From positions 1,664,001 through 1,728,000 of the forward strand of contig CBDAOB010000005.1 of assembly GCA_965197905.1 (NCBI GenBank): 64,000 nt of DNA, given 5' to 3'. The stretch comes from Candidatus Latescibacterota bacterium. Its GTDB lineage: Bacteria; Latescibacterota; UBA2968; UBA8231. The notes under the pieces were generated by a model. That model was not told the DNA's origin, searched no databases, and saw only the letters and a list, made by a program, of their open reading frames with translations. Below are positions 24,416 through 43,080 of this stretch, one piece after another; position 1 is the stretch's first letter, and each line of letters starts with the position of its first letter. The translations under genes and the position numbers were made by a program.

Positions 24416-24417
24416 AC

Positions 24418-26568: not shown

Positions 26569-28344
26569 TCAGTTGGCGGCTTCCTCCTTCTTCTTGTCCC
26601 CCAACGACCCGATCCAGAAGATGAAGCAGATCAAAGCGCCGAAGGTGATGACGATGGCGGCGATGATGTTGGAAGCGTCACCCACGGTCGGGGTGAAGGC
26701 GTCTGGTGAAGTGTCTCTCATGACCCCGTATATATGCCAGTCCTCCCGGATGCCCGACCGCACGTACCCCATGAGTCCCATCATGGCGGTAAAGGTGACA
26801 GCCAGCATTATGAGGATGTACTGAGACTGGTCCGTCATCTTGCCCCACTGCACCTCGCCGGTGGATGATGCCCGTCGATAGAGGATGACATCGAGGACGG
26901 TCACCGAGAACAGCACGGCCAGAACTACCAGCACCTGTCCCGGCGTCAGGACGTTCACCCGCTCGAGGCTAGGCACGTAGTACCCCATCACGCCGAAAAC
27001 CACCACGATGACTGCGGCGACGGCGAAGATGGTGCCCACCACGACGTTGACGGGCTTGGACCAGCGCACTGTCGGAGTCTTGCCGGATCTGCGGTAAAAG
27101 AGAAAGGTCAAGAAGGTGGTGAGAATGATGAGGTTTACCGCCGTGTTCTTGGCCGACATGACTCCGAAAACCCCCACGAGCGGATGGTGTTCACCGCCTA
27201 TGGCCGCCTTCTCCACCTGGCTCAGGATCAGGGTCCTGGGAGTCGCCCACACGGCGATGCAGGCGACGAGAACGGCGAATACGAAAGGCCGATATCGGGC
27301 GTATCTCTCGGCGCCTTTGATGCGGCCCATCCCCGACCACAGGTAGAAGTTCACACCCAGGAAGAGCACCCCTATCATGGCCGCCTGGATGATGAAGAGC
27401 CACGAGAACAGGCTGCCCATCATGTTGATGCCCATGGTCTGGTTGAACTCGTAGATCTCCTTGGCGAGCCAATACCCGGCGAAGGGCAGGGGGATGAGGG
27501 CGCTCACGGCGATGAAGTTTCCAGTGTAGCCCATCCAGTCGTAGTGGGCCTTGTCGGATGCGCTCGTGGCTGTGAGGAATCGGACTGCCGCGTAGGCCCC
27601 TACGACTGCTCCCCCGAAGGCGATGTTGGCGATGAAGCGGTGAATGTTGATCGGCATCCAGGTGAAGTTATAAACCGCATCCCCCAGGCTGATCAGAGCC
27701 CCGTTCTCGTCTATCCCGCCAGGACTCGTCATGAAGGTGAGCCAGGCGTTGGCCACGCACATGATCGCCGTGCCGAAGACGTTGAGTAGCACGCCGATGG
27801 TCAGGTGCAGCCACTTCCGATTCATCAACCGTTCCCACGAGTACCAGTAGAGATAGAGGCTGAAGGTCTCGCCGAAGAAGAGGGCCACGTAGAGCACGTA
27901 GGTAGGAGTGAAGATATTGCTCATGTAGCCGAAGAATTTGGGATAGAAACCGATCATCAGGAACAGGAGCACGGCACCAAACATGGCGGTGGTGGAGAAA
28001 GCCACGAGACACAGCTTGATGAACTCGCGGGCCATGCGGTCGTAGCGCGGATCGCCGGTGCGCATGCCGACGAACTCGATGATCACGGCAAAGAGTGGGA
28101 CACCGAGAATGAAGGCGGCGAACATGAGGTGGAGCTGCCCTACGACCCAGACCGCCACCCGGCTGCCTATCACCGGGAACTCCCGGTACTCTGGGATGTC
28201 GGAGAGCGCGGCTTGGGGCCAGGCCGATGTGCTCGTGAAGAAGAGAACCAGACCGAAGGCGATGGCCGTTAGTGCCGGCGGCGAACTGAGGCCCTCAGGC
28301 AGGCATTTGCCTTTCGTACGGTAGGGAGCTGTTTGGTGGATCAA
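26569..28344 (-). CDS. Cytochrome bd-like oxidase subunit I (CydA homolog without CydB); start uncertain, TTG at 28344 used
   Basis: QLHLMFAAFILGVP (heme-ligand His), RYDRMA, ETFSLYLYWYSW, ANAWLTFMTSP, NIHRFIAN, MMGLMGYVRSGIREDWHIYGV (equivalent of the GRQPW region); many TM helices. Confidence 0.8.
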   Translation of the reverse strand: MIHQTAPYRTKGKCLPEGLSSPPALTAIAFGLVLFFTSTSAWPQAALSDIPEYREFPVIGSRVAVWVVGQLHLMFAAFILGVPLFAVIIEFVGMRTGDPRYDRMAREFIKLCLVAFSTTAMFGAVLLFLMIGFYPKFFGYMSNIFTPTYVLYVALFFGETFSLYLYWYSWERLMNRKWLHLTIGVLLNVFGTAIMCVANAWLTFMTSPGGIDENGALISLGDAVYNFTWMPINIHRFIANIAFGGAVVGAYAAVRFLTATSASDKAHYDWMGYTGNFIAVSALIPLPFAGYWLAKEIYEFNQTMGINMMGSLFSWLFIIQAAMIGVLFLGVNFYLWSGMGRIKGAERYARYRPFVFAVLVACIAVWATPRTLILSQVEKAAIGGEHHPLVGVFGVMSAKNTAVNLIILTTFLTFLFYRRSGKTPTVRWSKPVNVVVGTIFAVAAVIVVVFGVMGYYVPSLERVNVLTPGQVLVVLAVLFSVTVLDVILYRRASSTGEVQWGKMTDQSQYILIMLAVTFTAMMGLMGYVRSGIREDWHIYGVMRDTSPDAFTPTVGDASNIIAAIVITFGALICFIFWIGSLGDKKKEEAAN

Positions 28345-28501
28345 AGCTGTTCGGATCTTCCTGCTATTCTTGTGGCCTCGCCTGATGGGCAAACTGCTGA
28401 GGAAGGGGCGCCATGGTAACTCCCCCGAAAAAAAACGGACACCCTCCTTCCAGAGGGATGCCGACGAATAACCAGCCCCTGAAGCAGGTATCCTATAGTA
28501 C

Positions 28502-28529
28502 GTGGTTACAAATAGCAAGTGGTTACAAA
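28502..28529. repeat. 11-bp direct repeat GTGGTTACAAA (period 17) upstream of the bd-like operon
   Basis: GTGGTTACAAA-TAGCAA-GTGGTTACAAA read directly. Confidence 0.6.
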
Positions 28530-28580
28530 AAAATTACCCGAGGACCTGCCAGTGTTGCGCGCAGCGCCCATACCGCGGCT

Positions 28581-28636
28581 CGACCAGAATCCACTTGACC
28601 TCTGCCGATGATACCGTTTATCCTTCCTAACCGTCC
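28581..28636 (+). promoter_or_regulatory. Duplicated promoter-like element, copy 1
   Basis: TTGACC-N18-TATCCT inside an approximately 55-bp segment repeated at 31081-31134. Confidence 0.55.
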
Positions 28637-28950
28637 TTGGCAAAAATGGGAATCGAGTAGCGTGCCCGGGAAAATGGGCATACCGAAACGAGTATCGTAT
28701 TTCCCTAACAGTTGGTCTCTGTTGAGACGAATTCGTGACAAAACTGGAAGTGAAAATAGCAATCGTCTGCTTCGCGACGCCGGAAAATCTAACGCCGTCT
28801 TACAACCCCCGTCATAGACCACTACGAAGATCGAGCCAGTTTAGCTCGCAATGATGGCTCCGCCGATCCGGACCAGGTTTTGAAAACATCTTGGAACACC
28901 TGGAGTCGATCAAGCGCTAGATTTGACAGCTTGGTGCAGCCCTACGCGAC

Positions 28951-29451
28951 GTGCTGACCTTCAAAACCTTCGTTCTTTGGTTACATTTGACAGTCGCAGT
29001 AATTTGGCTCGGCGGCATGTTTTTCATGACAGTCGTACTGTTGCCAATGTGGCGACGCTCCACGGCCTCCCCCAGAGAATTCTCTGGGACAATCGAAAGG
29101 ACGGTGAAGCGTTTTCAGACCATAAGTTGGGAGGCGGTCGGAATCATATTTCTTACGGGAATTTTCAATCTAACCAATGCCGGGCTCGTGCGTGAGTTTA
29201 ATTTCAGCGCGGCCTATCTATATATAGTGGTAACTAAGCTGTTTCTCCTGGTCGTGATCGTTGCAAACCAGTCGTTTCAAAGCTACAGCATTTTGCCAAA
29301 ACTAATTTCTGCGTCATCGACAGACGACAATTTGCCGGCGAGGTCGGATTCGTTCGACAGACTTCACAAGAAGACCATGATCCTGTCGATTCTGAATTTA
29401 GTGTTGGCCGGCTTAGTGATTTATTTAGGGTTGGGGCTGAAGTATCAATAA
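28951..29451 (+). CDS. CopD/DUF4149-like membrane protein
   Basis: WLHLTVAVIWLGGMFF, IIFLTGIFN, TKLFL; four TM helices. Confidence 0.7.
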   Translation: MLTFKTFVLWLHLTVAVIWLGGMFFMTVVLLPMWRRSTASPREFSGTIERTVKRFQTISWEAVGIIFLTGIFNLTNAGLVREFNFSAAYLYIVVTKLFLLVVIVANQSFQSYSILPKLISASSTDDNLPARSDSFDRLHKKTMILSILNLVLAGLVIYLGLGLKYQ

Positions 29452-29471
29452 AGAGAAGCGGAGGCTTGCTG

Positions 29472-29984
29472 CTAAGGTTGGGGTCCCTTCAGTCCTTCTG
29501 TGAATATAACTCGCAAATCCGGGCGGTGGAGTGACTTGCCCAAGAAGTCCCTAAACATCTCGTATATTCCACACCGCAGCGCATCTGCATCCACCGGGAA
29601 TAGGTTTAAGAGATTCCTGGCGTCTTTTACCATATTGCTCCAGGTGTCGTTTTGCGGCCAATCGCCCGTTTCCCTTGTAGAGGCCGGCACCATTTCGAGT
29701 CTAAGTTCGAAGAAATGATGGAAGCGTTCCAAGGCTTTGAATTCGTCCTGGGTGAAACCGTCTGTAAATTCTGCAACAGCCTTCTCAGAATTGTCGCCCT
29801 TCAAGCCGCCATCAAGGTACCGTATTCCCGGCAAATAAATGTCGTCGAACCAGATGCGGGCCAATTCGAAGGCCAATTTCCCAGGAGCGATGAACTTGTG
29901 GCACGCCTTCAAACTCTCCTCCGAGGTGAGAAACAGGAGGAAAACGATCACGTGTTTCCTGGTCTTTTCTGTCTCCGTCGCCAT
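29472..29984 (-). CDS. Hypothetical protein, 170 aa
   Basis: Clean ORF in a three-gene minus-strand run; no family recognised. Confidence 0.65.
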   Translation of the reverse strand: MATETEKTRKHVIVFLLFLTSEESLKACHKFIAPGKLAFELARIWFDDIYLPGIRYLDGGLKGDNSEKAVAEFTDGFTQDEFKALERFHHFFELRLEMVPASTRETGDWPQNDTWSNMVKDARNLLNLFPVDADALRCGIYEMFRDFLGKSLHRPDLRVIFTEGLKGPQP

Positions 29985-30059
29985 ATTATTCGTCCCGAAA
30001 TTTCACGAGCAGTCGTGCGTCTTTGTCCGGCAACGTCAAGATCCCCAAATCCGTGGGCT

Positions 30060-30584
30060 TCACCTCGCCTCTTTCGGTTGAGGAAGTTCCGGAGAATAGT
30101 CGAAATTGTCCGAAAGCGCTGCCTGGGCCGCAAAAGCGAAAAGGGTAACCAATCCCCAGGATAAACCCATGGCAACGCCCACGTCGATGATGCCCCGCCA
30201 GGGCTGGTCGATACCCTGTATGATGGTAATCAAGATGATTATTGCCGCCGTGAGCGCGATGACATTTCGCTGTCGATTTCGAAGTACGTGAAAGTAGCCA
30301 ATACAGAACAGCGGTGCTAGGAAAACATGCAAGACCTTCGGATTTTGGCGCAGATGTTTACACCTTGCAACGACCCTTGGCGAGAAGCCTTTCTGGAAGC
30401 CGCGATATCCCTCCGAATAGACCATGAATAACGAATTGATCACCAGCGCCACCCAGTGATACCAAAACAATTCATACAGAAAAGCCTCTACCGCAACTGG
30501 TGCCAATCGATATAATGCAAAACCGATCAACAATCCAATTCCTGCAAATCCCCAAATTGCTCCCAATAAACCGATCAAATGCAT
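30060..30584 (-). CDS. Hypothetical membrane protein
   Basis: ATG at 30584 (MHLIGLLGAIWG); hydrophobic helices and conserved-looking YSEGYRGFQKGFSPRV and QPWRGIIDVGV segments. Confidence 0.7.
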   Translation of the reverse strand: MHLIGLLGAIWGFAGIGLLIGFALYRLAPVAVEAFLYELFWYHWVALVINSLFMVYSEGYRGFQKGFSPRVVARCKHLRQNPKVLHVFLAPLFCIGYFHVLRNRQRNVIALTAAIIILITIIQGIDQPWRGIIDVGVAMGLSWGLVTLFAFAAQAALSDNFDYSPELPQPKEAR

Positions 30585-30594
30585 CTGAAAAAAA

Positions 30595-30957
30595 TCAAAA
30601 GTCGATTCCCGGCGAATCCTTCCATTTGGGCTCGCCCTCTGGCTTGAAATTCCGCGTGCCAACGAAATTCAATTCGTGATGATGAAAATTTAGTTTGAAT
30701 TTGCCGCCGCCGAAATTGTCCAATAGATAGTTCATGGGATCGTTAACCAGCGGGGTCATGTCTTTGCCATTGTAGCGTGCAAGTCCTTTGAATCGGACTG
30801 AATTTTGCCAGGGTTCCTGAACCAATACCGTTACCGATGATTCGCGCAATGTTTGGAAAAAAGCATTTTGCAGGTCGTCCTGAGAAGGACTTTCATTTCC
30901 CAAGCGTTCCAGCTCCCTGGTAACGTATTCTTCGTAGATTTCCCAAACCCAATCCAT
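30595..30957 (-). CDS. Hypothetical protein, 120 aa
   Basis: Clean ORF MDWVWEIYEEY...FGGGKFKLNFH...PEGEPKW at the head of the run. Confidence 0.7.
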   Translation of the reverse strand: MDWVWEIYEEYVTRELERLGNESPSQDDLQNAFFQTLRESSVTVLVQEPWQNSVRFKGLARYNGKDMTPLVNDPMNYLLDNFGGGKFKLNFHHHELNFVGTRNFKPEGEPKWKDSPGIDF

Positions 30958-31080
30958 ACATAGCCTGTGCGGTACGAATTTCGTTAATGTGAGTGACAGA
31001 GAAAACTTTCAGCGATTATGATGGCGACACTGACAGAAAATATCAATAGTCATTACAGCCAATTCGTCATCCAAACGACG

Positions 31081-31134
31081 CGACCAGACCGACTTGACCG
31101 CTACCGATAGTACCGTTTATCCTTCTACCCGTCC
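31081..31134 (+). promoter_or_regulatory. Duplicated promoter-like element, copy 2
   Basis: TTGACC-N18-TATCCT; about 47 of 56 positions match 28581-28636 by hand alignment. Confidence 0.55.
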
Positions 31135-31148
31135 GCGGCTCTGATGGG

Positions 31149-31290
31149 ATGCCAATTCGTGGGAAGGAATTCATCAGACCCCAGCCGCGTGATTTTACAG
31201 CTGCTATCTTCAAGCTCCAGACGAGTGAAAGTGGCAAACTGCCCACCCACGAGGACATCAAGAAGGGCATCAAAAATGGCTCAATCCAGA
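31149..31290 (+). pseudogene. Fragment of a cytochrome c gene
   Basis: RPQPRDFTAAIFKLQTSESGKLPTHEDIKKGIKNG aligns with NPRPRDFTRGQYKIRSTESRELPTDDDLLRIVTDG of 22583..24415; no CxxCH or signal peptide. Confidence 0.6.
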
Positions 31291-31345
31291 TTGACATCTG
31301 GAATTTCGGACCGTCAAACGAAATCTGCAAACCGAGATCAATCCA

Positions 31346-32644
31346 TTGACTCTGGGTCTCCCATCTAATCAACTTAGCCAGTTGACTTCCCCTACCGAGT
31401 ACCGCCCGTCCCTCATCTCCTGGAACCTCACCAAAATGTGCAACCTGCGGTGTCCGCACTGTTATCTAGACGCCGGCAAGAGGGCGGAGGATGAGCTCAC
31501 CACCATTGAATGCTTTGCGCTTATTGACGAGATGAAGGCATTGGGAACGGAAATGCTGATTCTTACCGGTGGGGAGCCGTTATTACGAAAGGATATCTAT
31601 GACATCGCAAGATATGCTTCCGAGCGGGGCATTTGGGTTGTTATGGGTACAAACGGCGTTTTGATTACTGATAAAGTTGTGCAGAAGATGTTGGAATGTG
31701 GGGTGAAGGGCGTGGGCATCAGCATCGATTCAATGGATCCCGAGAAGCACGATGGATTTCGCGGGGGTCCGAAATCGTGGGAATATTCGGTTCAGGCTCT
31801 GGAAATATCTCGAGCCCACGGTTTGGAAGTTCTGGTTCAAACGACGGTCATGGAAACGAATTACTACGAGATTCCTCAGCTGATTGACTTTGCAAAGGAG
31901 AAGGGAGCCTGGTCGTTCAACCTTTATTTTCTGGTGCAGACGGGCCGCGGAGAGGAAATGAACGATCTGTCTCCACAGCAGACCGAGGCGATGCTCACGA
32001 ACCTGGTTGAGGTACAGAACGAATATCGACCCATGCTGGTGCGCTCCAAATGTGCACCGCACTTTAAACGCATTGCCTTTGAAAGAGCACTGGGGGGTCT
32101 AGAGAGCGGGGGGTGCATGGCAGGCACTCAGTATGGACGGATTACACCTGAAGGAAATGTGACGCCTTGCCCGTATATGACGGTCGAGGTTGGCAACATT
32201 AGGGAAAACAGCCTTACAGAGATTTGGCAGACTGCACCAGTTTTTCGGGAATTGAGGGATCTGAAGCAGCTCAAGGGCCGCTGTGGAGACTGTGAGTTTA
32301 AGGAGTTATGCGGCGGCTGTCGCTGTCGGGCTTACGCTGCTTATGGCGATTACTTGCAGGAAGATCCGGCCTGTAGATACCAACCGTCTGGCCAGCCTTT
32401 GCAACTCGAAAGAATCACTTGGACTTCGGAAGCCAAGTCCCGTCTTGAGCGCATCCCTATCGCCTTTATCCGCGAGAAGGTCAAGAAGGGAGTGGAGACG
32501 TACGCGCAACGTATTGGGGCTCGTGCTATCACCGCAGAATTGATGAAAATGGCAACCGCCGGCATGGAACGGCCGGCGGTTGCAAACGGCACTGCCCATT
32601 TGACTGCTACGTCAGATGTGGAGAGTGGCTCTGAACCGGAATAA
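31346..32644 (+). CDS. Radical SAM/SPASM protein (AhbC/AhbD/NirJ-like) with C-terminal PCP_red-like module
   Basis: SWNLTKMCNLRCPHC (CxxxCxxC), LTGGEPLLR, FFLV-like YFLVQTGRG, SPASM cysteines GCMAG...PCPY...CGDCEFKELCGGCRCRA...C, then ITWTSEAKSRLERIP. Confidence 0.88.
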   Translation: MTLGLPSNQLSQLTSPTEYRPSLISWNLTKMCNLRCPHCYLDAGKRAEDELTTIECFALIDEMKALGTEMLILTGGEPLLRKDIYDIARYASERGIWVVMGTNGVLITDKVVQKMLECGVKGVGISIDSMDPEKHDGFRGGPKSWEYSVQALEISRAHGLEVLVQTTVMETNYYEIPQLIDFAKEKGAWSFNLYFLVQTGRGEEMNDLSPQQTEAMLTNLVEVQNEYRPMLVRSKCAPHFKRIAFERALGGLESGGCMAGTQYGRITPEGNVTPCPYMTVEVGNIRENSLTEIWQTAPVFRELRDLKQLKGRCGDCEFKELCGGCRCRAYAAYGDYLQEDPACRYQPSGQPLQLERITWTSEAKSRLERIPIAFIREKVKKGVETYAQRIGARAITAELMKMATAGMERPAVANGTAHLTATSDVESGSEPE

Positions 32645-32667
32645 TACTTAAATTTCCAATTTTTCGT

Positions 32668-33075
32668 TTGATATTACTCGACAATCCTATTGACCTCATG
32701 CAGCTCAGCAACCCAAAACCTCACTGGAACGAACTCGAGTTTCTTAGCTGGAAAGAGTTCAAGCAGATGGCCCCCTCTATCATCCAGCTGGAGATATCCC
32801 GTATCGGAGACATGATCAATGCCCGGGCTACGCACATCGACTTCCGCAACGTGCTCGTGAGGGCCCGGTTTGAATTGCGAAAACTCCAGGAGTGTCTTCA
32901 GCAGGCAGACAGGCCGCCGCTGAAGGATTGTTGTGTTGCACATCTTCGGACTGCGATAATAGGTCTTTCCATTCAGAATCATATACAGGACAAGAATGCG
33001 GCGACAACATTGAAGTACACTTGTGACAGATTGAACTCCGTTCTGAAGAGGATCGATCTGATATTCCAAAACTGA
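32668..33075 (+). CDS. Hypothetical protein
   Basis: ORF fills the gap between the radical SAM and USP genes on the same strand; start may be ATG 32698. Confidence 0.6.
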   Translation: MILLDNPIDLMQLSNPKPHWNELEFLSWKEFKQMAPSIIQLEISRIGDMINARATHIDFRNVLVRARFELRKLQECLQQADRPPLKDCCVAHLRTAIIGLSIQNHIQDKNAATTLKYTCDRLNSVLKRIDLIFQN

Positions 33076-33135
33076 TAGAAAGTTCCTTTCGAGCTGGATC
33101 ACTGACATTCCTAAGACCCATTTGGAGGCCGATAA

Positions 33136-35073
33136 ATGTTCAAAAAGATCTACGTCCCTGTTGATAGCTCTGAGCACTCGATGACGTGCGCGGAGCTGGC
33201 GATTGATCTGGCGAAGAGGTTTGGCTCCGAGTTGGTGGGTTGCCATGCATATGCCGCCAAGATGCACGACATCCGATTCAGGCAGATGGAATTTACGCTG
33301 CCTGCAGAATATCAAGTGGAACAAGAGTTGGAGAAGCAGCGAAGTATACACGACACGCTGATCACAATGGGACTAGAGCTCATTTCGGACTCCTATTTGG
33401 AAGACATGAAGAAGAAATGCGAGACCGAGAAGCTTCCCTTCGAACAGAAGATGATGGACGGCAAGAACTTCAAGATCCTCGTTGATGACATTAACACCAG
33501 CGATTACGACCTGGTGATCATCGGTGCGCTGGGCCTCGGCGCCGTTCGGGATAGCACAATCGGAAGCGTCTGTGAAAGGGTGGTCAGAAGAACCAAGACC
33601 GATACGCTGGTTATCAAGAATACCTCTCCCTTGGAAGATCAGCTCAGTGGAAACGGCAATGGAGAGGTCAAGCATGAACTTGGCAATGGAGGCAATATCG
33701 TTGTCTGCGTCGACGGCAGCCCTGAATCCTTTGCCGGGCTGAGAACAGCCATCTCCCTCGGGAGGGCTGTAAACAGAGAAGTGGAGGCCATCGCCGTCTA
33801 TGATCCCTATCTGCATTATACCATGTTCAACAGCATCGCAAATGTCTTAACCGAGAAGGCATCGAAAGTATTTAAGTTCAAAGAGCAGGAGCAGCTGCAC
33901 GAAGATGTAATCGACACAGGCCTGGCAAAGATATATCAGTCCCACCTGGAGGTCGCACGAAAGATCGCCAAGGAATACGACCTCGACTTGAGGATAACCC
34001 TTCTCGATGGCAAGGCCTTTGAGAAGATTATCCAATATGTAAGACGTGAAAGACCATGGCTCTTGGTTGTAGGACGGATTGGTGTGCACAGCGATGAAGA
34101 CATGGATGTTGGCAGCAATACCGAAAATCTTCTTCGCTTGGCGCCCTGCAACGTTTTTCTGTCCAGCAAGCGATTTACCCCGGCCATCGATGTTCAGGCG
34201 GAGGAATCGATGACGTGGACTGAAGAGGCAACCGCAATCTTGAATACGGCGCCGGAAGGGGTGAGGGGCATAGCCCGTACGACCATACACAGGTGGGCCA
34301 TGGAACGGGGGCATTCGGTCATAACAAGGAAAGTGATCGAGAATGCAATGGCGAGCATATTGCCGGAAAAAGCGATGAGGGCCATGGGGATTATCGCCGA
34401 GGAAGTCGCCGTCGAAAAGGGAAATTTGCTGGAATCAGAGACCTATATCTGTCGCGAGTGCGGCTATGCCGCCCGCGACGTGGAGCCGGTGGTCTGCCCG
34501 GTCTGCCATGGCCCTGCGGGAGGATTCCAGAAGATCGACAAACAAGCCATAGAGAATCTCGCACCGCTGGAAGGAGACATTGATGAAGAGAGAACCTTCG
34601 ACAACCTGAAGTTGAAATGGACCAGCGAAGCAAAGCAGGCCTTGCACGGTGTGCCATCAGGTTACCAGAGAAGAAGGGCGAGAGCGCAAATCGAAAAAAG
34701 CGTCAGGGTGCGCAAGCTTCCAACCATCACCAGGGAGTTGGTCTTGGAGCTTGCCGGGGACATTATCGAAGAAACCAAGAACCTGGAAGAGCGCGGCCGA
34801 CTGAAGAAGGAGATGTCCGGCACGGAAAGCGTTCTCGAGCAACATGTCATTCAGGATGGCAACTTCCGATGGAGCGCCTCCGCCGTGGCTAGGCTGAATC
34901 GCGTCCCTGAGGGATTCATGCGTGATCAGACAAAGGAACGAATAGAAAATTGCGCTAAAACGAAGTCTGTGGATTTCATTAACCTAGAAATCGCAGAGGA
35001 GGGGATTGCGGAAAGCCGAAACATCATGGCGGAGACGATACGAAGAAACAACGAAGATGAATCCCGCAACTGA
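33136..35073 (+). CDS. Multidomain protein: two universal stress protein domains, rubredoxin-like domain and three PCP_red-like modules
   Basis: MFKKIYVPVDSS...DLVIIGALG...GSVCERVVR; IVVCVDGS...LLVVGRIG...GSNTENLLRLAPC; YICRECGY...CPVC; three W(T/S)xxAxxxLxxxP modules; GGAGG RBS. Confidence 0.88.
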   Translation: MFKKIYVPVDSSEHSMTCAELAIDLAKRFGSELVGCHAYAAKMHDIRFRQMEFTLPAEYQVEQELEKQRSIHDTLITMGLELISDSYLEDMKKKCETEKLPFEQKMMDGKNFKILVDDINTSDYDLVIIGALGLGAVRDSTIGSVCERVVRRTKTDTLVIKNTSPLEDQLSGNGNGEVKHELGNGGNIVVCVDGSPESFAGLRTAISLGRAVNREVEAIAVYDPYLHYTMFNSIANVLTEKASKVFKFKEQEQLHEDVIDTGLAKIYQSHLEVARKIAKEYDLDLRITLLDGKAFEKIIQYVRRERPWLLVVGRIGVHSDEDMDVGSNTENLLRLAPCNVFLSSKRFTPAIDVQAEESMTWTEEATAILNTAPEGVRGIARTTIHRWAMERGHSVITRKVIENAMASILPEKAMRAMGIIAEEVAVEKGNLLESETYICRECGYAARDVEPVVCPVCHGPAGGFQKIDKQAIENLAPLEGDIDEERTFDNLKLKWTSEAKQALHGVPSGYQRRRARAQIEKSVRVRKLPTITRELVLELAGDIIEETKNLEERGRLKKEMSGTESVLEQHVIQDGNFRWSASAVARLNRVPEGFMRDQTKERIENCAKTKSVDFINLEIAEEGIAESRNIMAETIRRNNEDESRN

Positions 35074-35112
35074 CAAAAAAAGCACTAATCCGCGCCCTCT
35101 GCGGTAAGCAAA

Positions 35113-36033
35113 ATGAAAACCTACAAAGACATAGCCGGCGACGGCGGATCGAATATTGTTGAGCAGGTTGCCGCCCAGTTAGACCGTGTGAAGTCAAGGA
35201 TGGCTTCCGTGCGGCATATTGTTGCCGTTATGAGTGGCAAGGGCGGAGTCGGAAAGAGTTCCGTCGTCGTGAATCTTGCCTCGGCCTTCGCCCTTCAGGA
35301 TTACTCCGTGGGAATTTTGGATGCCGACATCAACGGTTCGTCTATACCAAAGATGACCGGAGTTCGCGGACACCCGTTGGAGACCGGTCATACCGGAATG
35401 ATGCCCAAGGCGGCCGCTCGAAATCTTAAGGTTATGTCGATTGATCTGTTTTTGTCTGATGACAGCGCGCCGATTATTTGGGACGCCCCCACACAGAAGG
35501 ACGCTTATACCTGGCGCGGCATGATGGAGGCTGCGGCCATTCGCGAATTAATGTCCGACACGGAATGGGGCGAATTGGATTTCTTATTCATTGACCTGCC
35601 GCCAGGAACCGACAAGCTGCCGAATATGTTGGACCTACTCCCGAAAATTTCGGGCACCATTATTGTGACGATCCCATCAGGGCTGTCCCAGTTCGTTGTC
35701 GGTAAATCAATTAAAATGGCGAAGGAATTGCTGCAAACACCGGTGATAGGGTTGGTCGAGAATATGTCGGCGTATATATGCAGTCAATGTGGCCATGAGG
35801 AGGAATTGTTTCCGGGAAGTATCGTCGAGGAGTTGGCGGAACAGCATGATGTGCCGTATCTCGGCAGGATTCCGTTCGACCCGAGAATGGCCGTTTGTGC
35901 TGATGAAGGTTCGCTTTATATCCAAAAGCACAGCGACTTACCGGTTACAAATGCGATCGGGCAGATTGCTCAAAGGGTAAGAGAGTTTTTGAAAACGGAG
36001 GAAAATAATGAAATTCCTATGTGTGGAATGTGA
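35113..36033 (+). CDS. Mrp/ApbC/NBP35 family ATPase (Fe-S cluster carrier-like)
   Basis: SGKGGVGKS, ILDADING, WGELDFLFIDLPPGTD, GLVENMSAYICSQC, YLGRIPFDP. Confidence 0.92.
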   Translation: MKTYKDIAGDGGSNIVEQVAAQLDRVKSRMASVRHIVAVMSGKGGVGKSSVVVNLASAFALQDYSVGILDADINGSSIPKMTGVRGHPLETGHTGMMPKAAARNLKVMSIDLFLSDDSAPIIWDAPTQKDAYTWRGMMEAAAIRELMSDTEWGELDFLFIDLPPGTDKLPNMLDLLPKISGTIIVTIPSGLSQFVVGKSIKMAKELLQTPVIGLVENMSAYICSQCGHEEELFPGSIVEELAEQHDVPYLGRIPFDPRMAVCADEGSLYIQKHSDLPVTNAIGQIAQRVREFLKTEENNEIPMCGM

Positions 36034-36514
36034 CGAACCGATGAAACTGAAGGACACCAAAGGCCCCGACGACGGCTCCATGACCGTTGTCTTCAATTGC
36101 CCAAAATGCGAACGCCAAATCGCTATGCTGACCAACCAAATGGAAACGCAAATGGTACGGTCGCTTGATGTGAAGCTTGGTGCAGGCTCAATCCAGACAG
36201 AGCCCATGGAAACGATTAGGAGTTCTTTGGCCCAAAAACACGACGATGTCCTTACATCATCGATTCATTCTCATGATGAAGCAGACCAAATAGAGTCAGG
36301 TTCCAAGTGTCCGTTTTCCGGAGCCGTTGCCGATGCCTTCGAAATCTCTGGCGAAATCGTCTGGACCCAGGAGGCTGAGGAACGTCTTGGCAGAATCCCA
36401 CCATTTGCCCGATCAATGGCCAAGCAGGGAATTGAACAGCACGCCCGCGAAAGGGGATATAAAGAAATTAGTGATGCGGTGATGGAGGAAGTGAGGGATC
36501 AGTTTGCGATGTGA
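36008..36514 (+). CDS. Zn-ribbon plus PCP_red-like module protein
   Basis: MKFLCVECD...CPKC, MLTNQMETQMVRSL, KCPF, then IVWTQEAEERLGRIPPFARSMAKQGIEQHARERG. Confidence 0.8.
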   Translation: MKFLCVECDEPMKLKDTKGPDDGSMTVVFNCPKCERQIAMLTNQMETQMVRSLDVKLGAGSIQTEPMETIRSSLAQKHDDVLTSSIHSHDEADQIESGSKCPFSGAVADAFEISGEIVWTQEAEERLGRIPPFARSMAKQGIEQHARERGYKEISDAVMEEVRDQFAM

Positions 36515-36541
36515 GTCTGAAGCGGTCTAACCAACTGAACT

Positions 36542-37102
36542 GTGCAGCAGCTGCCGATGCCCTCCTCTAGAGCGATACACCTGACCCCGAAGCAGTTTGG
36601 CGCCACCAATGCCCTCGTGACCCTCACGGCGATGAGCTTCCTGGTCTGGGTGGTCTACTTCCACGAGGGGGATGGCAGCGCTTCGCAGGGGACAACGCTA
36701 CCCCTGATCAACGCGATCTTGAACGGCACAAGCGCTGCCCTAATCTCAGTGGGGCTGTGGGCAATCAAGCAGCGCAAGCGCACGCTGCACATGCAGCTGA
36801 TGCTAGCTGCGTTCGCGTCGTCGGCGCTGTTTCTTGTGAACTACATCTACTACCATTTTTCCCACGGAGATACGCACTTTTCGGGCCACGGAATCATCCG
36901 ACCCATTTACTTCACGGTGCTCATCAGCCACATTCTGCTGTCGATGGTGACCTTCCCGATGATTCTGACGTCATTATATCTCGGACTGAGCAATCGTCTC
37001 GATACCCATAAGCGGCTATCCAAGTGGACGTGGCTGGGGTGGATGTATGTCTCGGTCACGGGAATCGTGGTCTATCTCATGCTCCACGTGGTCGGCTGGT
37101 AA
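36542..37102 (+). CDS. DUF420 (CtaM/YozB-like) membrane protein
   Basis: LPLINAILNG, LHMQLM, YFTVLISHILLS, HKRLSKWT...WMYVSVTGIVVYLML. Confidence 0.85.
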   Translation: MQQLPMPSSRAIHLTPKQFGATNALVTLTAMSFLVWVVYFHEGDGSASQGTTLPLINAILNGTSAALISVGLWAIKQRKRTLHMQLMLAAFASSALFLVNYIYYHFSHGDTHFSGHGIIRPIYFTVLISHILLSMVTFPMILTSLYLGLSNRLDTHKRLSKWTWLGWMYVSVTGIVVYLMLHVVGW

Positions 37103-37203
37103 GTAGAGGAAATTTTGACTAGTTTTGTCAACGCAGCTACCAACCCCATTGAGAGAGCAAGCCGCAACTCTAACGTCGCGAAAAGGATAAAAGGAGTTTT
37201 TCT

Positions 37204-37917
37204 ATGCTAGACTGGCTGCCGGAAAACATATCGACCTACGGAGCAGAGATCGACTCTCTTTTTTACATACTCTACTATATAACTTTGGCAACCTTCATTC
37301 TGGTGGCGGCAGCCATGGTAATATTCATGATCAAGTACCGTCACCGCGAGGGGCACCGGGCGAAATACGTTCACGGGCACGCTGGCCTAGAGATTACATG
37401 GACTGCTCTCACGGCGGTGACCGTGATTGCATTTGGCTTGATGAGCGCGCCATTGTGGACCAAAATAAAGCAAGATGTACCTCCTTATGAGATTCAAGTT
37501 CAGGTGAGCGGCAAGCAGTTTAACTGGGACGTTCTCTATCCCGGACCGGACGGAGAGTTTGGTACACAGGATGATCTCGAGATCGAGAACATGGTCCACG
37601 TTCCGGTTAATAAGGTCGTGCGGGTTGTTCTTACATCGCGGGACGTCATTCACAGTTTCTTCGTGCCGGTCCTGCGCCTGAAGCAGGATTCTCTGCCAGG
37701 TCGAAAGATCGATGCCTGGTTTGAAGCGACCAAGACGGGGAGATATGAGATACCCTGTGCTGAGTTGTGTGGATTCGGGCACTCCGGGATGCTCGGTTAT
37801 CTAATTGTGCACACCGATGAAGATTATAAAGCGTGGGTGCAGGAAAATTGGCCGGGGATGGAGTCGGCGATGGAGTCGGGGTCAGACCAGGGATCGAAAT
37901 CATTAGAGATCAATTAG
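37204..37917 (+). CDS. ctaC: Cytochrome c oxidase subunit II (no fused cytochrome c)
   Basis: DVIHSFF, CuA motif CAELCGFGHSGM; AAGGAG RBS. Confidence 0.95.
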   Translation: MLDWLPENISTYGAEIDSLFYILYYITLATFILVAAAMVIFMIKYRHREGHRAKYVHGHAGLEITWTALTAVTVIAFGLMSAPLWTKIKQDVPPYEIQVQVSGKQFNWDVLYPGPDGEFGTQDDLEIENMVHVPVNKVVRVVLTSRDVIHSFFVPVLRLKQDSLPGRKIDAWFEATKTGRYEIPCAELCGFGHSGMLGYLIVHTDEDYKAWVQENWPGMESAMESGSDQGSKSLEIN

Positions 37918-37994
37918 TCGGTCGCAACCTTGGTCAAGAATGAAATGTCTAGCTAATCGGCAACAAAATTCAACTCAAAACAGAGGGGTAAGCC

Positions 37995-39839
37995 ATGGCT
38001 GAATCTGCATCTGCAAAAGACACACATGAGGTACATGCCCATGAGGACCTCGGGTTTGTGCGCACATACATCTTCTCGACCGATCATAAGATGATAGCAA
38101 AGCAGTTTCTGTTCTTGGGTCTGTTCATGATGCTTATCGGAGGCGGATTGGCGCTCATGATACGCTGGCAGTTGGGCTATCCCGAACAGCCTCTACCCCT
38201 GATAGGAGTATCACAAGAGTTTCTGGAAACGGCTGAGCCGCAAACGGCAATGGACAGTGTCTGGGAGGGATGGGATGAGGAAGGTACGGAGAATTGGCTG
38301 GTTGAAACCATGCCGTACGGGGTGATGACCGCGGCGTTCTACAACATGGTCTTCACCATGCATGCCACGATAATGATCTTTTTCGTAATTATGCCCATAC
38401 TGGTGGGATGTTTTGGCAATTTCCTCATCCCGCTCATGCTTGGCGCCCGCGATATGGCTTTCCCGAAGCTCAATATGCTTTCGTTCTGGGTCGGTGCAGT
38501 ATCGGGACTTGTGATGCTGGCAGGATTCTTCGTCTCCGGTGGACATGCCTCCACCGGGTGGACCGCCTATGCACCGCTATCCTCCAAGGCTACCTGGACG
38601 GGGGTGGATTGGGGACAAAATCTGTGGTGCATCAGCATCATTATCCTCGCCATTTCGTCCATGATGGGAGCGATAAACTACATCACTACGACCATCAACA
38701 TGCGTGCACCGGGGATGACGTGGATGCGCATGCCGCTCGTCATCTGGTCACTCTTCATCGTGGCAATTCTTCTTCTGTTGGCGCTACCCGTGTTAACCTC
38801 AGCCCTGGCGCTGCTCCTGTTCGACCGCATGGGAGGGACAAGCTTCTTCTCTCCGGCAGGCGGTGGTGAGCCGCTCCTCTGGCAGCATCTCTTCTGGTTC
38901 TTCGGCCATCCAGAGGTTTACGTTCTTATCGTTCCGGCGATGGGGATTACGTCAGATGTATTATCCGTTTTTTCTCGCAAGCCAGTTTTCGGATATGTCG
39001 CTATGGTATTTGCCATGCTTGCTCTCGCTTTCCTCTCATGGATTGTCTGGGGTCACCATATGTTCATGAGTGGAATGAATCCTGCGCTTGGCATGGCCTT
39101 CATGCTGTCGACCATGGTGATTGCGGTGCCGTCGGCGATCAAAACGTTCAATTGGCTTGGCACTATATGGGGTGGTTCAATCCACTTCACGACGCCGATG
39201 CTAAACGCGCTGGCATTTGTGGCGATGTTCGTGATTGGAGGATTGAGTGGTATTCACATGGCTATTACTCCCGTGGACATTTTTATCCACGACACCTACT
39301 ACATCGTTGCGCATATCCATTACGTTGTGTTCGGCGGAAGTATCTTCGGCATGTTTGCAGGTATTTACTTCTGGTTCCCGAAGATGTTTGGTCGCATGAT
39401 GAATGAGACTCTCGGGAAGATTCACTTCTGGCTAACCTTCATAACCTTCAACTGTACATTCATCCCGATGCACCTTATTGGAGTGGGTGGGCACATGCGG
39501 CGAATCTATAATCCGATGCAATATGAGTTCCTGCAGCCGATGCAGCCGATGAATGTCTTTATCACTGTGAGTGCATTCTGTCTTGGTGCCGCGCAGCTTG
39601 TATTTATTTTCAATTTCTGCCGGAGTCTGTATCGTGGAAAGAAAGCAGAGCAGAATCCATGGCAGGCGAATACCCTGGAGTGGAGTGCTCCATCGCCACC
39701 GCCGCATGGCAATTGGGGCGAGACGATTCCATCAGTCTATCGTGGTCCATACGAATACAGCTCTCCGGAAGTCGCCGAGGACTGGCTGCCACAGGATAAA
39801 CGGCTTGAGCCGGCAACGGCGGGTGCTAGTGGTGATTAG
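37995..39839 (+). CDS. ctaD: Cytochrome c oxidase subunit I, A1 type
   Basis: STDHKMI, TMHA, FWFFGHPEVY (A1), WGHH, HDTYYIVAHIH, GHMRRIY. Confidence 0.97.
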   Translation: MAESASAKDTHEVHAHEDLGFVRTYIFSTDHKMIAKQFLFLGLFMMLIGGGLALMIRWQLGYPEQPLPLIGVSQEFLETAEPQTAMDSVWEGWDEEGTENWLVETMPYGVMTAAFYNMVFTMHATIMIFFVIMPILVGCFGNFLIPLMLGARDMAFPKLNMLSFWVGAVSGLVMLAGFFVSGGHASTGWTAYAPLSSKATWTGVDWGQNLWCISIIILAISSMMGAINYITTTINMRAPGMTWMRMPLVIWSLFIVAILLLLALPVLTSALALLLFDRMGGTSFFSPAGGGEPLLWQHLFWFFGHPEVYVLIVPAMGITSDVLSVFSRKPVFGYVAMVFAMLALAFLSWIVWGHHMFMSGMNPALGMAFMLSTMVIAVPSAIKTFNWLGTIWGGSIHFTTPMLNALAFVAMFVIGGLSGIHMAITPVDIFIHDTYYIVAHIHYVVFGGSIFGMFAGIYFWFPKMFGRMMNETLGKIHFWLTFITFNCTFIPMHLIGVGGHMRRIYNPMQYEFLQPMQPMNVFITVSAFCLGAAQLVFIFNFCRSLYRGKKAEQNPWQANTLEWSAPSPPPHGNWGETIPSVYRGPYEYSSPEVAEDWLPQDKRLEPATAGASGD

Positions 39840-39862
39840 CGGGTCGGAGGGACGGCAATTCC

Positions 39863-40759
39863 ATGGTTGAGACATTGGGCGCAGGGGTTATATCTGACCG
39901 AAAACAGATAGCGGACTTCCTTGCGCTTACGAAGCCGCGATTGGTACTGATGGTGCTGATTGCTACGCTCGCCGGCTTCTATCTCGGCTCCGTGGGAAGG
40001 TTTGATTGGATTCATCTGCTCAATACGCTTATCGGAACGGCACTCGCAGCCGGTGGATCTATTGCGTTGAACCAATATATCGAGCGCGACTTGGATGCAA
40101 AGATGAGGCGCACGAGACTTCGTCCCTTACCTGATGGACGACTTCAGCCCGACGGAGCACTGATTTTTGCCGTCGCGATTTCGCTCGGCGGAGTGCTCTA
40201 TCTATTGTTTACAGTAAATGCACTCAGCAGCCTTTTTGCTGCAATGACTGTGAGTAGCTACATATTTCTCTACACGCCTATGAAGCGCAAAACTGCATTC
40301 TGTACTGTCATAGGTGCGATTCCGGGGGCACTGCCTCCGGTGGGCGGTTGGGTAGCGGCACAAGGCTCTTTGGGCCTTGGAGCTTGGGTGCTCTTTGCCA
40401 TCATGTTCTTCTGGCAGATACCTCATTCGCTAGCTATTGGCTGGCTGGATCGCATCGACTATGAGCGGGCCGGCTTGAAGTTGCTTCCTGTTATCCACCC
40501 CGACGGAAGGAGTACAGGGCACCAAGTTGTGACCAACTGTCTGGCACTTCTTGCTATCGGCTTAATACCGACACTTATGGGGCTTGCGGGTTCGATCTAT
40601 TTCTTTACCGCTTTCGTGGTGGGAATCGTATTCCTCTGGTATGGGGTTCGTTTCGCAATTTTCCGCTCTACGGTAGCCGCACGGCGTCTGTTGTTGGCTT
40701 CGTACTTGTATATACCGCTTCAGCTTGGAATGATGTCATTCGATAAGCTGCCCTTTTAG
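39863..40759 (+). CDS. ctaB: Protoheme IX farnesyltransferase (heme o synthase)
   Basis: LTKPRL, NQYIERDLDAKMRRTRLRPLPDG, GAIPGALPP, FWQIPH. Confidence 0.95.
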   Translation: MVETLGAGVISDRKQIADFLALTKPRLVLMVLIATLAGFYLGSVGRFDWIHLLNTLIGTALAAGGSIALNQYIERDLDAKMRRTRLRPLPDGRLQPDGALIFAVAISLGGVLYLLFTVNALSSLFAAMTVSSYIFLYTPMKRKTAFCTVIGAIPGALPPVGGWVAAQGSLGLGAWVLFAIMFFWQIPHSLAIGWLDRIDYERAGLKLLPVIHPDGRSTGHQVVTNCLALLAIGLIPTLMGLAGSIYFFTAFVVGIVFLWYGVRFAIFRSTVAARRLLLASYLYIPLQLGMMSFDKLPF

Positions 40760-40859
40760 CAGAAAGCACCGCTTTCCGGCGCTTCGCTTCGGGATTGTTG
40801 GGGGAGAGAAACTAGCTGTATGAATCGCTGCGGGGCGGGAAGTGTTGCAGGAGAAGAAA

Positions 40860-40970
40860 GTGGGCAATCAGGATTTAGAGCAACGAAACCAACGTGTAAG
40901 ATTGATCCTGCTAGCAATAGTGATTTTTCTCATTGTATTCACGGTAATCACCGTAGTTGTTCGGAATTAA
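40860..40970 (+). CDS. Small single-TM protein, 36 aa (not in ORF track)
   Basis: AGGAG RBS, then GTG: MGNQDLEQRNQRVRLILLAIVIFLIVFTVITVVVRN*; inside the oxidase operon. Confidence 0.65.
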   Translation: MGNQDLEQRNQRVRLILLAIVIFLIVFTVITVVVRN

Positions 40971-41006
40971 AGTTGGAATTAGCCGTATGGATGTAGAAGA
41001 GTAAAG

Positions 41007-41708
41007 ATGTCAACAGGAACCTTGGATATTGACCATAGCGTAAAGGAAGCTACGGGAGCCAGGGATATTGGAGAGGGGTTGCCACCCATATTCCCTCCAG
41101 ATCCCGGCGACAACAACCGTGGCGATGACAATAACCGTGGTGATGGTGAAGATGAGCAACCCGTAGGCAATGTCTACATTGGCATGCTGTTGTTCGTAGG
41201 GGCAGAAGTGATGTTTTTTGCCGGGCTAATCGGTGCCTTTATCGTATTCCGTTTCGGAAGCTCGATGTGGCCGCCACCCCTTCAGCCTCGTCTACCTGTC
41301 GAAGTAACCGGTGTTAACACCGCTATCTTGCTTCTCAGTGCCTACACCATGTATCTAGCTTGGAGGGCGGCAATAGGTGGAAATAGGAGCAGGCTCCTAC
41401 AAGGATTGTGGATGACAGCAATTCTTGGAACAATCTTTCTTGCTGTGCAAGGGTACGAGTGGATTAGGCTTCTGGGATTTGGTCTCACCATGTCATCAAG
41501 CGTTTACGGAGCAACTTTTTATACATTGATTGGCTGCCATGGTCTTCATGTGTTTGGCGCATTGTGCTGGTTGCTTGTGGTTCTAACAATGGCGAGAAGC
41601 AATCGGTTCTCAGCAAAGAAGCATGTTGCCTTGGACCTCTGCGGAATCTACTGGGGCTTTGTAACAGTTCTCTGGCCCGTTCTTTATGCGCTTGTTTATC
41701 TGAATTGA
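41007..41708 (+). CDS. ctaE: Heme-copper oxidase subunit III (first copy)
   Basis: GMLLFVGAEVMFFAGL, NTAILLLS, GCHGLHV, YWGFV. Confidence 0.88.
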   Translation: MSTGTLDIDHSVKEATGARDIGEGLPPIFPPDPGDNNRGDDNNRGDGEDEQPVGNVYIGMLLFVGAEVMFFAGLIGAFIVFRFGSSMWPPPLQPRLPVEVTGVNTAILLLSAYTMYLAWRAAIGGNRSRLLQGLWMTAILGTIFLAVQGYEWIRLLGFGLTMSSSVYGATFYTLIGCHGLHVFGALCWLLVVLTMARSNRFSAKKHVALDLCGIYWGFVTVLWPVLYALVYLN

Positions 41709-41725
41709 GGCAGAAACGAAGGCTA

Positions 41726-42007
41726 ATGCCAAATAAATGTTTGACAATTGTTCTTGGGATCATACTCATGGTCTTACTAATCCCCATTACCGTGCACGCG
41801 TGTCCGATGTGCGTGGAAGCCTTGAAGGGCTCGGAGGTGGGTCGTGGTTTCAATACAAGCATTCTATTCCTTCTATTGATGCCCTTTGCCCTTGTTAGCT
41901 CGATCGGTGGTGGATTGTTTTTCTATCTACGCCGGAATTCACCTTCACGCCAGAAACAAAATACCTATGTAACAGCTAACTCCAATGTGGAAGGAGAGCA
42001 ACGTTGA
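41726..42007 (+). CDS. Small exported/membrane protein with ACPMC motif
   Basis: Signal-like helix ending VHA, then CPMC, GFNTSILFLLLMPF TM helix; stop overlaps the next start. Confidence 0.7.
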   Translation: MPNKCLTIVLGIILMVLLIPITVHACPMCVEALKGSEVGRGFNTSILFLLLMPFALVSSIGGGLFFYLRRNSPSRQKQNTYVTANSNVEGEQR

Positions 42008-42621
42008 CTCAAGCTACTGCTATGGCAGCAACTGTCGATCCTGCGGAATCTCCACTTACCCCTGAGAGCTGGGGCAAGCTTGGAATGTGGATATTCCTCG
42101 CGGGAGATGCGATGTCGTTTGGAACCCTGCTTGCTGGTTATGGCGCCCTGCGAGCTGGAAGCACCGACTGGCCTAACCCGGCAGAAGTGCTCGGCATACC
42201 CCTCACTGCCTTCATGACCTTTCTGCTGATCTGCAGCAGTGTGACCATGGTGAAGGCCTTGTCAGCAATCAAGCATGGCAACTCAAAGGGAATGCGGAAC
42301 TATTTACTGTTGACCATTCTGGGTGGTCTGATTTTCCTGGGCTGCCAAGCATACGAATGGACAGTCCTGATTAATGGGGGTCTTGGTTTTAGTACTAATC
42401 CTTATGGGAATTATCTCTTTGGCACAACCTTCTTTGCCATTACAGGTTTTCACGGGGCCCACGTTACCGGGGGCGTCATATATCTCACATGCATAGTGGT
42501 GCGTGGAATGCGCGGCAAATACTCAGCTGCGAATTACGACCACGTTGAGATCCTCGGGTTATACTGGCATTTCGTAGACCTTGTATGGATCATGGTGTTT
42601 ACCTTTGTCTACTTGCTCTAG
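42004..42621 (+). CDS. ctaE: Heme-copper oxidase subunit III (second copy)
   Basis: [43 protein letters not shown]. Confidence 0.92.
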   Translation: MTQATAMAATVDPAESPLTPESWGKLGMWIFLAGDAMSFGTLLAGYGALRAGSTDWPNPAEVLGIPLTAFMTFLLICSSVTMVKALSAIKHGNSKGMRNYLLLTILGGLIFLGCQAYEWTVLINGGLGFSTNPYGNYLFGTTFFAITGFHGAHVTGGVIYLTCIVVRGMRGKYSAANYDHVEILGLYWHFVDLVWIMVFTFVYLL

Positions 42622-42712
42622 TAGCAGAGTCAGAAATTGGCAAGAATTTTAGCGTTCAGAAATCAAATTTCGTGGGATCTGGTCATACTTTCATAGTGGG
42701 GAAAGAAAAACA

Positions 42713-43033: not shown

Positions 43034-43080
43034 TCTCTCCATCCAAAACGCAACACTCACCGAACTGCAAAGGAACTGCG

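Follow-up and report, generated by a model that had tools for sequence, protein, structure and literature searches.

In the biosynthesis of haem d1, the nir operon encodes NirJ, a radical S-adenosylmethionine (SAM) enzyme of the SPASM type that acts on a tetrapyrrole and is tied to a single respiratory enzyme, cytochrome cd1. This system is the closest working analogy to a five-gene cassette that we describe here in a 64,000-nucleotide stretch ("the window") of the genome of a Candidatus Latescibacterota bacterium (contig CBDAOB010000005.1), and that very probably serves a terminal oxidase of the bd-like, OR-N/TO_1 type. The radical SAM enzyme of the cassette nevertheless belongs to a different clade from NirJ, and the nir operon has nothing that corresponds to the universal stress protein (USP), Mrp and PF08369 parts. 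By score and by tree, its nearest families are AhbD (TIGR04545) and NirJ2 (TIGR04055), with which it shares the CX3CX2C motif and an eight-cysteine SPASM motif; the chemistry of AhbD and NirJ is treated in PMC7242693 and PMC13564367. Unlike these enzymes, it always ends in a PF08369 module and follows the oxidase rather than the need for haem. PF08369 is the C-terminal domain of BchB/ChlB in dark-operative protochlorophyllide reductase (DPOR; 2KRU, 2L09, 2YNM). The cassette modules are the same 45-residue domain with the same fold, but each genome has 5 to 12 of them, spread over unrelated proteins, and no nitrogenase-like subunit was found with them. The cassette USP has the tandem fold and the ATP-binding glycine motifs of Rv2623, UspE and TTHA0350 at 12-19% identity, and differs from these known tandem USPs in its long helical lids with four invariant histidines, its fused modules and a rubredoxin-like knuckle. 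Its ATPase shares PF10609, GKGGVGKS and a CxxC with the Mrp/ApbC/Nbp35 carriers, including the operon-specific MrpORP; unlike MrpORP and ApbC, it is divergent, carries an N-terminal extension and is paired with a zinc (Zn)-ribbon protein bearing PF08369. All parts of the cassette are from known families, and cassettes that mature one particular respiratory enzyme are already a known type.

The oxidase cluster beside the cassette has the composition of the Nitrospira bd-like_3 complex with alt_NxrC_2, of Manganitrophus TO_1 and of anammox kustd1709-1712. The bd-like_3 composition with alt_NxrC_2 is conserved in Nitrospina and anammox bacteria (PMC6606698), the TO_1 complex shares it (bioRxiv 2021.11.15.468770), and such CydA-like proteins constitute the OR-N family (bioRxiv 2021.01.16.426971), whose composition and function are without experimental confirmation (PMC10839748, PMC12342949). 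In Nitrospirota that oxidise nitrite or manganese, few membrane complexes are expressed as highly as the bd-like one (PMC10839748, PMC6606698, bioRxiv 2021.11.15.468770). An OR-N-type oxidase is the proposed respiratory enzyme of nitrite-oxidising Nitrospira, and also of Nitrospina and manganese oxidisers. The available portions of the literature describing the OR-N/TO_1 complex name no maturation genes for it. The literature searched, which did not extend to most subscription papers or to the bioRxiv supplements of Murali and of Yu, yielded no account of the cassette or of a connection between it and OR-N oxidases.

The cassette consists of five tightly spaced genes on the forward strand, separated by 23, 60, 39 and -26 nt, with the content and order that an initial annotation of the locus, made from the letters alone, had given for an operon. 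The first gene (31346-32644; alternative in-frame TTG start at 31382) encodes the radical SAM/SPASM enzyme, which carries PF08369 module 1 at its C-terminus (32420-32551, 48.1 bits). A gene for a hypothetical protein (32668-33075) separates it from that of the USP-USP-rubredoxin-like protein (33136-35073). In the latter, the tandem USP is followed by module 2 (34216-34347, 36.3 bits), a rubredoxin-like CxxC...CxxC knuckle (34444-34527; PF21349, under the cut-off), module 3 (34618-34749, 33.6 bits, with a basic RRxKA consensus) and module 4 (34870-35001). A dedicated Mrp/ApbC-type P-loop Fe-S carrier ATPase (35113-36033) and a Zn-ribbon protein with a CPF motif (36008-36514), bearing module 5 (36362-36496, 59.7 bits), complete the series. 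A scan of the region for promoters and terminators stayed at shuffle level (11 promoters against 15.3).

The initial annotation had placed a BchB-like module at five positions in three proteins, and a hidden Markov model search with PF08369, as it had proposed, gave a match starting exactly at each of them. All five lie at or above the Pfam gathering cut-off of 32.5 bits, module 4 scoring 32.2 bits alone and 32.6 with its neighbours. A search of the whole 6.69-Mb genome returned these five matches only, every one inside the cassette, and a regular expression of the motif noticed initially found these same five places only in 8.8 million six-frame-translated residues. Leave-one-out profiles recovered each copy (E-values 1e-5 to 1e-9). 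With pairwise identities of 24-39%, the copies are old homologues rather than a recent repeat. Relatives with solved structures are the BchB/ChlB C-termini, the stand-alone Asr4154 and the entries 2KRU and 2L09, determined by nuclear magnetic resonance. The AlphaFold model of the Zn-ribbon protein superposes its module on 2L09/2KRU with a root-mean-square deviation of 1.6 A over 51-54 columns (E-value 0.007-0.01), with the same three-helix fold. The radical SAM module, the Zn-ribbon module and the three USP modules have each a separate consensus, kept across phyla, which argues against a single interchangeable tag. A docking role for the module, as initially proposed, is nonetheless plausible. 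The idea that it is a detached AAA+ lid was rejected, hhalign against sigma-54 activator lids giving a probability of 1.3%, within the shuffled controls.

The evidence for the tie to the oxidase comes from paired whole-genome searches in four lineages (344 genomes), with E-value thresholds that we set at 1e-20 for the USP and 1e-40 for the CydA-like protein, and with PF08369 used to score the host's relatives; at these thresholds, distant OR-N subfamilies may be missed. Seventy genomes have both, 2 the cassette only, 1 the oxidase only and 271 neither. The initial annotation had proposed to examine whether the cassette occurs together with bd-like oxidases lacking CydB, and the correspondence is nearly one-to-one. 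Among 121 Nitrospirota, the USP occurs in 41 and the CydA-like protein in 40 (39 both, 2 cassette only, 1 oxidase only, 79 neither); the genomes with cassette and CydA-like protein are identical in Calditrichota (9 of 71), Rhodothermia (19 of 111) and the relatives of the host (3 of 41). The sole oxidase-only genome (G070) has a USP fragment at a contig edge and the radical SAM gene on the oxidase's contig. Five more genomes have no oxidase at the cassette locus; four of them encode a CydA-like protein elsewhere and one (G239) does not. Co-conservation of the cassette genes, which the initial annotation had made a condition of its reading, was borne out across phyla: 59 USP loci come from Latescibacterota, Marinimicrobia, Calditrichota, Rhodothermales, Poribacteria, Methylomirabilota, Nitrospirae and Proteobacteria, mostly with the radical SAM gene and often with the Mrp gene, the Zn-ribbon gene and the oxidase cluster. 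The link between cassette and oxidase survives the scattering of the genes, and the USP-radical SAM pair is a candidate genomic marker for the OR-N respiratory complex.

Scattering is seen in the genomes that we call "Nitrospira-type", which have four oxidase paralogues. There the USP, radical SAM and CopD-like genes, the Mrp-Zn-ribbon pair and the oxidases lie far apart; an apparent absence of the Mrp and Zn-ribbon proteins from these genomes proved wrong, both being present but unlinked. Each of five such genomes has 12 PF08369 matches in five proteins. The further module-bearing proteins are a Zn-ribbon protein with two modules, one with four modules, and a Cys-rich one with two (L184:9110-9862, L185:5982-6974, L191:5992-6471; genomes G099 and G147). 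The 160-aa Cys-rich two-module gene stands just upstream of the tandem oxidases in all five genomes, with DUF420 and O-methyltransferase genes. The four-module gene follows rpsA, sppA and IHF-like genes; it resembles by eye the C-terminal extension of a three-module radical SAM enzyme (L097), and looks like a split-off radical SAM tail. The tandem oxidase cluster (L191:3315-12498) also holds, besides the O-methyltransferase and DUF420 genes, a carboxypeptidase-regulatory-like exported protein and two FGE-sulfatase-like proteins. These extra genes are candidates for further maturation factors.

The core of the cassette is the radical SAM/SPASM enzyme and the tandem USP, and the hypothetical protein, the dedicated Mrp and the Zn-ribbon/CPF protein are accessory. 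The USP carries between 0 and 5 modules and the radical SAM enzyme between 1 and 3. A minimal form has a module-less tandem USP and a one-module radical SAM enzyme (L096, L098-L100, L152), and in 6 of 14 metagenome loci of the most divergent, minimal-form lineage the USP, radical SAM, cydA and cytochrome c genes are contiguous. The Zn-ribbon N-terminus occurs in 27 of the 121 Nitrospirota, all among the 41 USP-positive genomes, so that the protein was not found in 14 of these 41. In Poribacteria loci, a 137-aa coiled-coil protein with a degenerate PF08369 match (23.9 bits; L031:19081-19491) comes after the radical SAM gene.

Published expression data contain proteins that fit the cassette, matched here by annotation, length and adjacency rather than by sequence. 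Among Nitrospira moscoviensis transcripts, a 2106-nt modular UspA gene (NITMOv2_0498) ranks 152nd, at 9.3 times the median (PMC6606698). The N. marina proteome includes a 699-aa USP (97-132 spectra), a 460-aa radical SAM/SPASM protein with the next identifier, and three proteins named "Proto-chlorophyllide reductase subunit" (328, 257 and 159 aa), none of which changed significantly at low O2 (PMC8115632). Both this lack of response in the 699-aa USP and the persistence of the cassette where it is unlinked from the oxidase speak against a role in regulation or stress, in which the genes would be no more than passengers of the oxidase locus, and against service to the adjacent haem-copper oxidase, as does its retention in Nitrospira, reported to be without canonical haem-copper oxidases (PMC6606698). 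We find such hitch-hiking scarcely credible, even though USPs are often regulators and haem-copper oxidase genes flank many loci. A further point in its favour is that block transfer would fit the patchy distribution, and the low GC content across the cassette and the downstream oxidase (49-52% at 28000-44000 of the window, against about 58% in the genome) is, as a compositional signal, consistent with acquisition as a block. In the nitrite oxidoreductase (NXR) cluster of Kuenenia, a gene listed as uspA (kustd1706) accompanies cydA (kustd1712) (PMC6423088). Among the matches listed for module-less USPs in two homologue searches (in one of them the best 120 of 1057), none was named as an anammox protein.

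What the cassette does for the oxidase depends foremost on its radical SAM enzyme. This has CX3CX2C and the full eight-cysteine SPASM motif, with three predicted [4Fe-4S] clusters, and matches the AhbD motif CX20-33CX17CX36-37CX2CX5CX2CX17-35C taken from PMC10452713. It scores 350.7 bits against NirJ2 (cut-off 500), 319.5 against AhbD (cut-off 500) and 213.6 against NirJ (TIGR04051, cut-off 515), below the cut-off in every case; orthologues (L093, L096, L053) reach 292-318 bits against TIGR04545. A quick tree of 40 rows unites the 19 cassette enzymes in a single clade (Shimodaira-Hasegawa-like approximate likelihood ratio support 95) and sets AhbD with TIGR04053 in a separate one (95) and AhbC/NirJ in a third (99); AhbC, NirJ, AhbD, NirJ2 and the cassette enzymes make up one group (91), with MftC and PqqE outside. 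A 96-row quick tree agrees (cassette clade of 53 rows, support 85). The enzyme is accordingly not a plain AhbD. A contrast between WN..HCY in the cassette clade and WE..HCR, tried as a separator from all AhbD-like enzymes, is weakened by a NirJ2-type gene that has the former too.

The host genome encodes HemF and ferrochelatase; ChdC, the NirDLGH/AhbAB family (PF17805), an AhbC paralogue and a HemN above the cut-off were not found in it. ChdC-family genes are present in three of three Nitrospira-type genomes, and five genomes (G046, G065, G077, G116, G152) have an AhbD above the cut-off together with a second, USP-adjacent radical SAM enzyme, whose modules were confirmed in G077 and G152. Its own clade and its co-existence with true AhbD, ChdC or HemF indicate that the cassette enzyme is not the housekeeping haem synthase. 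They bear also on a dedicated supply of ordinary haem b, in which the enzyme would be an AhbD isoenzyme or a HemW-like chaperone, passing haem b to the oxidase via the USP. The family scores and the full AhbD-type SPASM motif suit such a role, as does the sister branch, a NirJ2-type gene (L134) adjoining AhbC-like and AsnC-family genes. Yet the cassette enzyme falls below both cut-offs, is just 35-40% identical to AhbD-clade enzymes, and has N192, R265, T273 and D340 unlike all five outside references compared. It is retained beside the other haem b routes just mentioned, and a host with HemF and ferrochelatase would have little coprohaem to decarboxylate. We regard haem b supply as unlikely.

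An AhbD-clade radical SAM enzyme with a terminal PF08369 module was found at two loci (L120:194-1579 and L121:484-1869; 488 bits, cut-off 500), in genomes (G051, G061) that separately encode the cassette enzyme. In the oxidase-only genome G070, a gene for the haem-binding protein HmuY follows the cassette radical SAM gene (L133:2294-3181).

The USP has two PF00582 domains and two G-2x-G-9x-G-S nucleotide motifs. Its model (predicted local distance difference test, pLDDT, 75) has the tandem USP fold, closest to Rv2623, UspE and TTHA0350 (Foldseek E-value 3e-15). Each half carries a long helical lid insertion with two histidines 28 residues apart. In an alignment of 350 stored proteins (one fusion row excluded, gapped rows uncounted) these are invariant: H44 in 342/342, H72 in 346/346, H227 in 350/350 and H255 in 349/349. 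They are kept even in homologues of just 36-39% identity, whereas H270 is variable (153/349). An Atlas search with the USP gave generic USP clusters only. One metagenome protein (P0166) joins PF09459 (EbdC-like) and USP in a single 447-aa frame on a 1.9-kb contig, by fusion or frameshift artefact.

The invariant histidines would also suit a metal chaperone. The cassette, together with CopD-like and DUF420 proteins, would then equip the oxidase with a metal site holding copper or non-haem iron. In all eight Nitrospira-type loci examined (L090-L095, L101, L153) the radical SAM gene is followed by a CopD-like gene, and one lies near it in the window as well; a copper site has been proposed for one bd-like oxidase (PMC6606698). 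Such a function would leave the indispensable radical SAM enzyme without a role, however, and many loci have no CopD-like gene; we think it very unlikely. Modification of the oxidase protein itself, by a cross-link or modified ligand in the CydA-like protein or a cytochrome and with the modules as substrate recognition, would employ the enzyme, since the SPASM group includes peptide and protein maturases and the best PDB matches of the cassette enzyme are PqqE and SkfB. The many invariant Tyr, His and Met residues of the CydA-like protein and the strict dependence on a single client fit it too. But the tree places the enzyme among those acting on tetrapyrroles, not with MftC/PqqE, the PDB matches are limited to solved structures, and four invariant USP histidines and the CPF motif would stay unexplained. 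We judge protein modification improbable.

The dedicated Mrp (PF10609, 255.6 bits) has the deviant Walker A motif GKGGVGKS and the CxxC of Mrp/ApbC proteins. It scores below the ApbC and MrpORP cut-offs and belongs to a divergent subfamily marked by an insertion ahead of WRG and by a conserved extension at the N-terminus; a second, ordinary housekeeping Mrp is encoded elsewhere in the host genome. Where both are seen, the dedicated Mrp gene always adjoins the module-bearing Zn-ribbon gene. The Zn-ribbon protein combines CxxC...CxxC, a flexible disordered linker, the CPF motif (36308-36316), which is invariant (24/24), and the module; we take CPF to resemble a haem-regulatory motif. For the hypothetical protein, no Pfam or NCBIfam family and no Atlas match of at least 0.9 was found; it has a conserved WNE...P..LE..R motif and 29 homologues among the first 59 loci.

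The initial annotation had combined Mrp and modules into a BchL/NifH-like complex for ATP-driven electron delivery, with the module as the dock for Mrp, in the manner supposed for the BchB tail and BchL. Homology of the module to the BchB C-terminus, and a related P-loop ATPase adjoining a module-bearing gene, had made this attractive. The ATPase, however, is of the Mrp type and reaches only 14-17 bits against the Fer4_NifH, BchL and NifH models (BchL 15.5, cut-off 345; NifH 16.9, cut-off 394), and a search for the nitrogenase/DPOR component-1 family PF00148 gave no match in the host genome, which is 91% complete. The dedicated Mrp was not found in five of five selected module-bearing genomes, which gave Mrp matches of just 150-175 bits or none. 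Modules thus persist in genomes where the dedicated Mrp or the Zn-ribbon protein was not found, and cannot exist solely to dock Mrp; conversely, some USPs are without any module. We consider DPOR-like electron delivery highly improbable. The available parts of two papers on DPOR (PMC12022308, PMC13474568) and of a review of chlorophyll (PMC13297055) give no role for the BchB tail. This portion of the initial interpretation is not supported, and the module identity, the co-conservation and the oxidase link stand. None of the three outcomes that it had named as fatal was observed, namely modules matching neither each other nor PF08369, genes not co-conserved, or a plain AhbD with the other genes distributed independently.

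We propose instead, with about an even chance of being right, that the cassette makes and delivers a non-standard, modified haem for the OR-N/TO_1-type oxidase. The radical SAM/SPASM enzyme would act on an iron-porphyrin, haem b or coprohaem, by side-chain chemistry like that of AhbD or NirJ, yielding the active-site haem of the oxidase. The tandem USP would serve as a haem chaperone gated by ATP, which it would bind, and hold substrate or product between the histidine pairs of its two lids. The three [4Fe-4S] clusters of the radical SAM enzyme may be loaded by the dedicated Mrp with its Zn-ribbon/CPF partner in genomes that have them. The PF08369 modules would be small interaction or lid domains joining the cassette proteins, each position probably making its own contact. 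Other module-bearing proteins, BchB/ChlB and the AhbD-clade enzymes of L120 and L121, act on tetrapyrroles, which supports a haem cofactor. A bolder version, in which the OR-N haem is an undescribed one made by a new AhbD/NirJ-related clade and delivered by the first USP to act as a haem chaperone, with PF08369 as a module through which tetrapyrrole enzymes generally interact and by which the pathway is organised, is possible but rather doubtful. The cassette names factors that are probably needed for active expression of the oxidase, predicts that its haem is not an ordinary one, and offers a testable role for a large USP subfamily annotated merely as "stress protein" and for many non-photosynthetic PF08369 domains.

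Several points weigh against a modified-haem cassette dedicated to this oxidase. The table of 344 genomes makes the evidence look stronger than it is, since in most cases the genes are linked on the DNA and related genomes do not count as independent; the weight rests on the unlinked cases, which come down in essence to the Nitrospira-type and Poribacteria genomes. Three genomes (G046, G062, G239) carry the cassette and gave no CydA-like match. The cassette operon in the window runs on into a haem-copper oxidase cluster. The radical SAM trees are quick trees without bootstrap, and their nearest outside relative of the cassette enzyme is the NirJ2-type L134, on a long branch and in an Ahb-like cluster. 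Several residues in which the cassette enzyme differs from classical AhbD are found in L134 too, which leaves room for the chemistry of ordinary haem b synthesis. SPASM enzymes modify proteins too (PMC10452713). Lid 2 of the USP model is of low confidence (pLDDT below 50 at 231-243), and the four histidines might bind copper or another metal, CopD-like and DUF420 genes being nearby.

The inferred client, the CydA-like subunit (26569-28518, reverse strand), lies upstream of the cassette and divergent from it, and is 37-54% identical to the Nitrospirota paralogues. It is followed on the same strand by a cytochrome c (25166-26551), a second cytochrome c (24418-25158) and a fusion of cytochrome c and EbdC-like haem b protein (22583-24427). 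The cluster thus has the OR-N/TO_1 composition of a CydA-like protein, two cytochromes c and a periplasmic haem b subunit, and no CydB was found in it. A carboxypeptidase-regulatory-like exported protein (21694-22425, reverse strand), with a paralogue at 43081-43806, recurs beside the oxidase or the cassette. Between oxidase and cassette are recurring accessory genes for a CopD-like membrane protein (28951-29451, forward strand) and, on the reverse strand, for a 170-aa protein (29472-29984) and a 120-aa protein (30595-30957), neither with a family over the cut-off. The latter two have strongly conserved motifs and recur with the cassette at 17 other loci each. Immediately downstream of the cassette is a gene for a DUF420 membrane protein (36542-37102, forward strand), a family that also adjoins the PF08369 gene in the Nitrospira-type oxidase cluster.

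The haem-copper oxidase cluster directly downstream (37204-43806) encodes CoxB, CoxA, CyoE, two CoxC-like proteins and a CoxD-like protein, and related clusters adjoin the cassette in Calditrichota, Rhodothermales and Poribacteria loci. On the other side, an ActA-F-like Alternative complex III, accompanied by SCO and another haem-copper oxidase, occupies positions 9090-21209, so that a span of 35 kb contains three respiratory clusters. The segment from 56703 to 64000, with an integrase, replication-like genes, insertion sequence (IS) fragments and raised GC content, is probably an integrated mobile element unrelated to the cassette.

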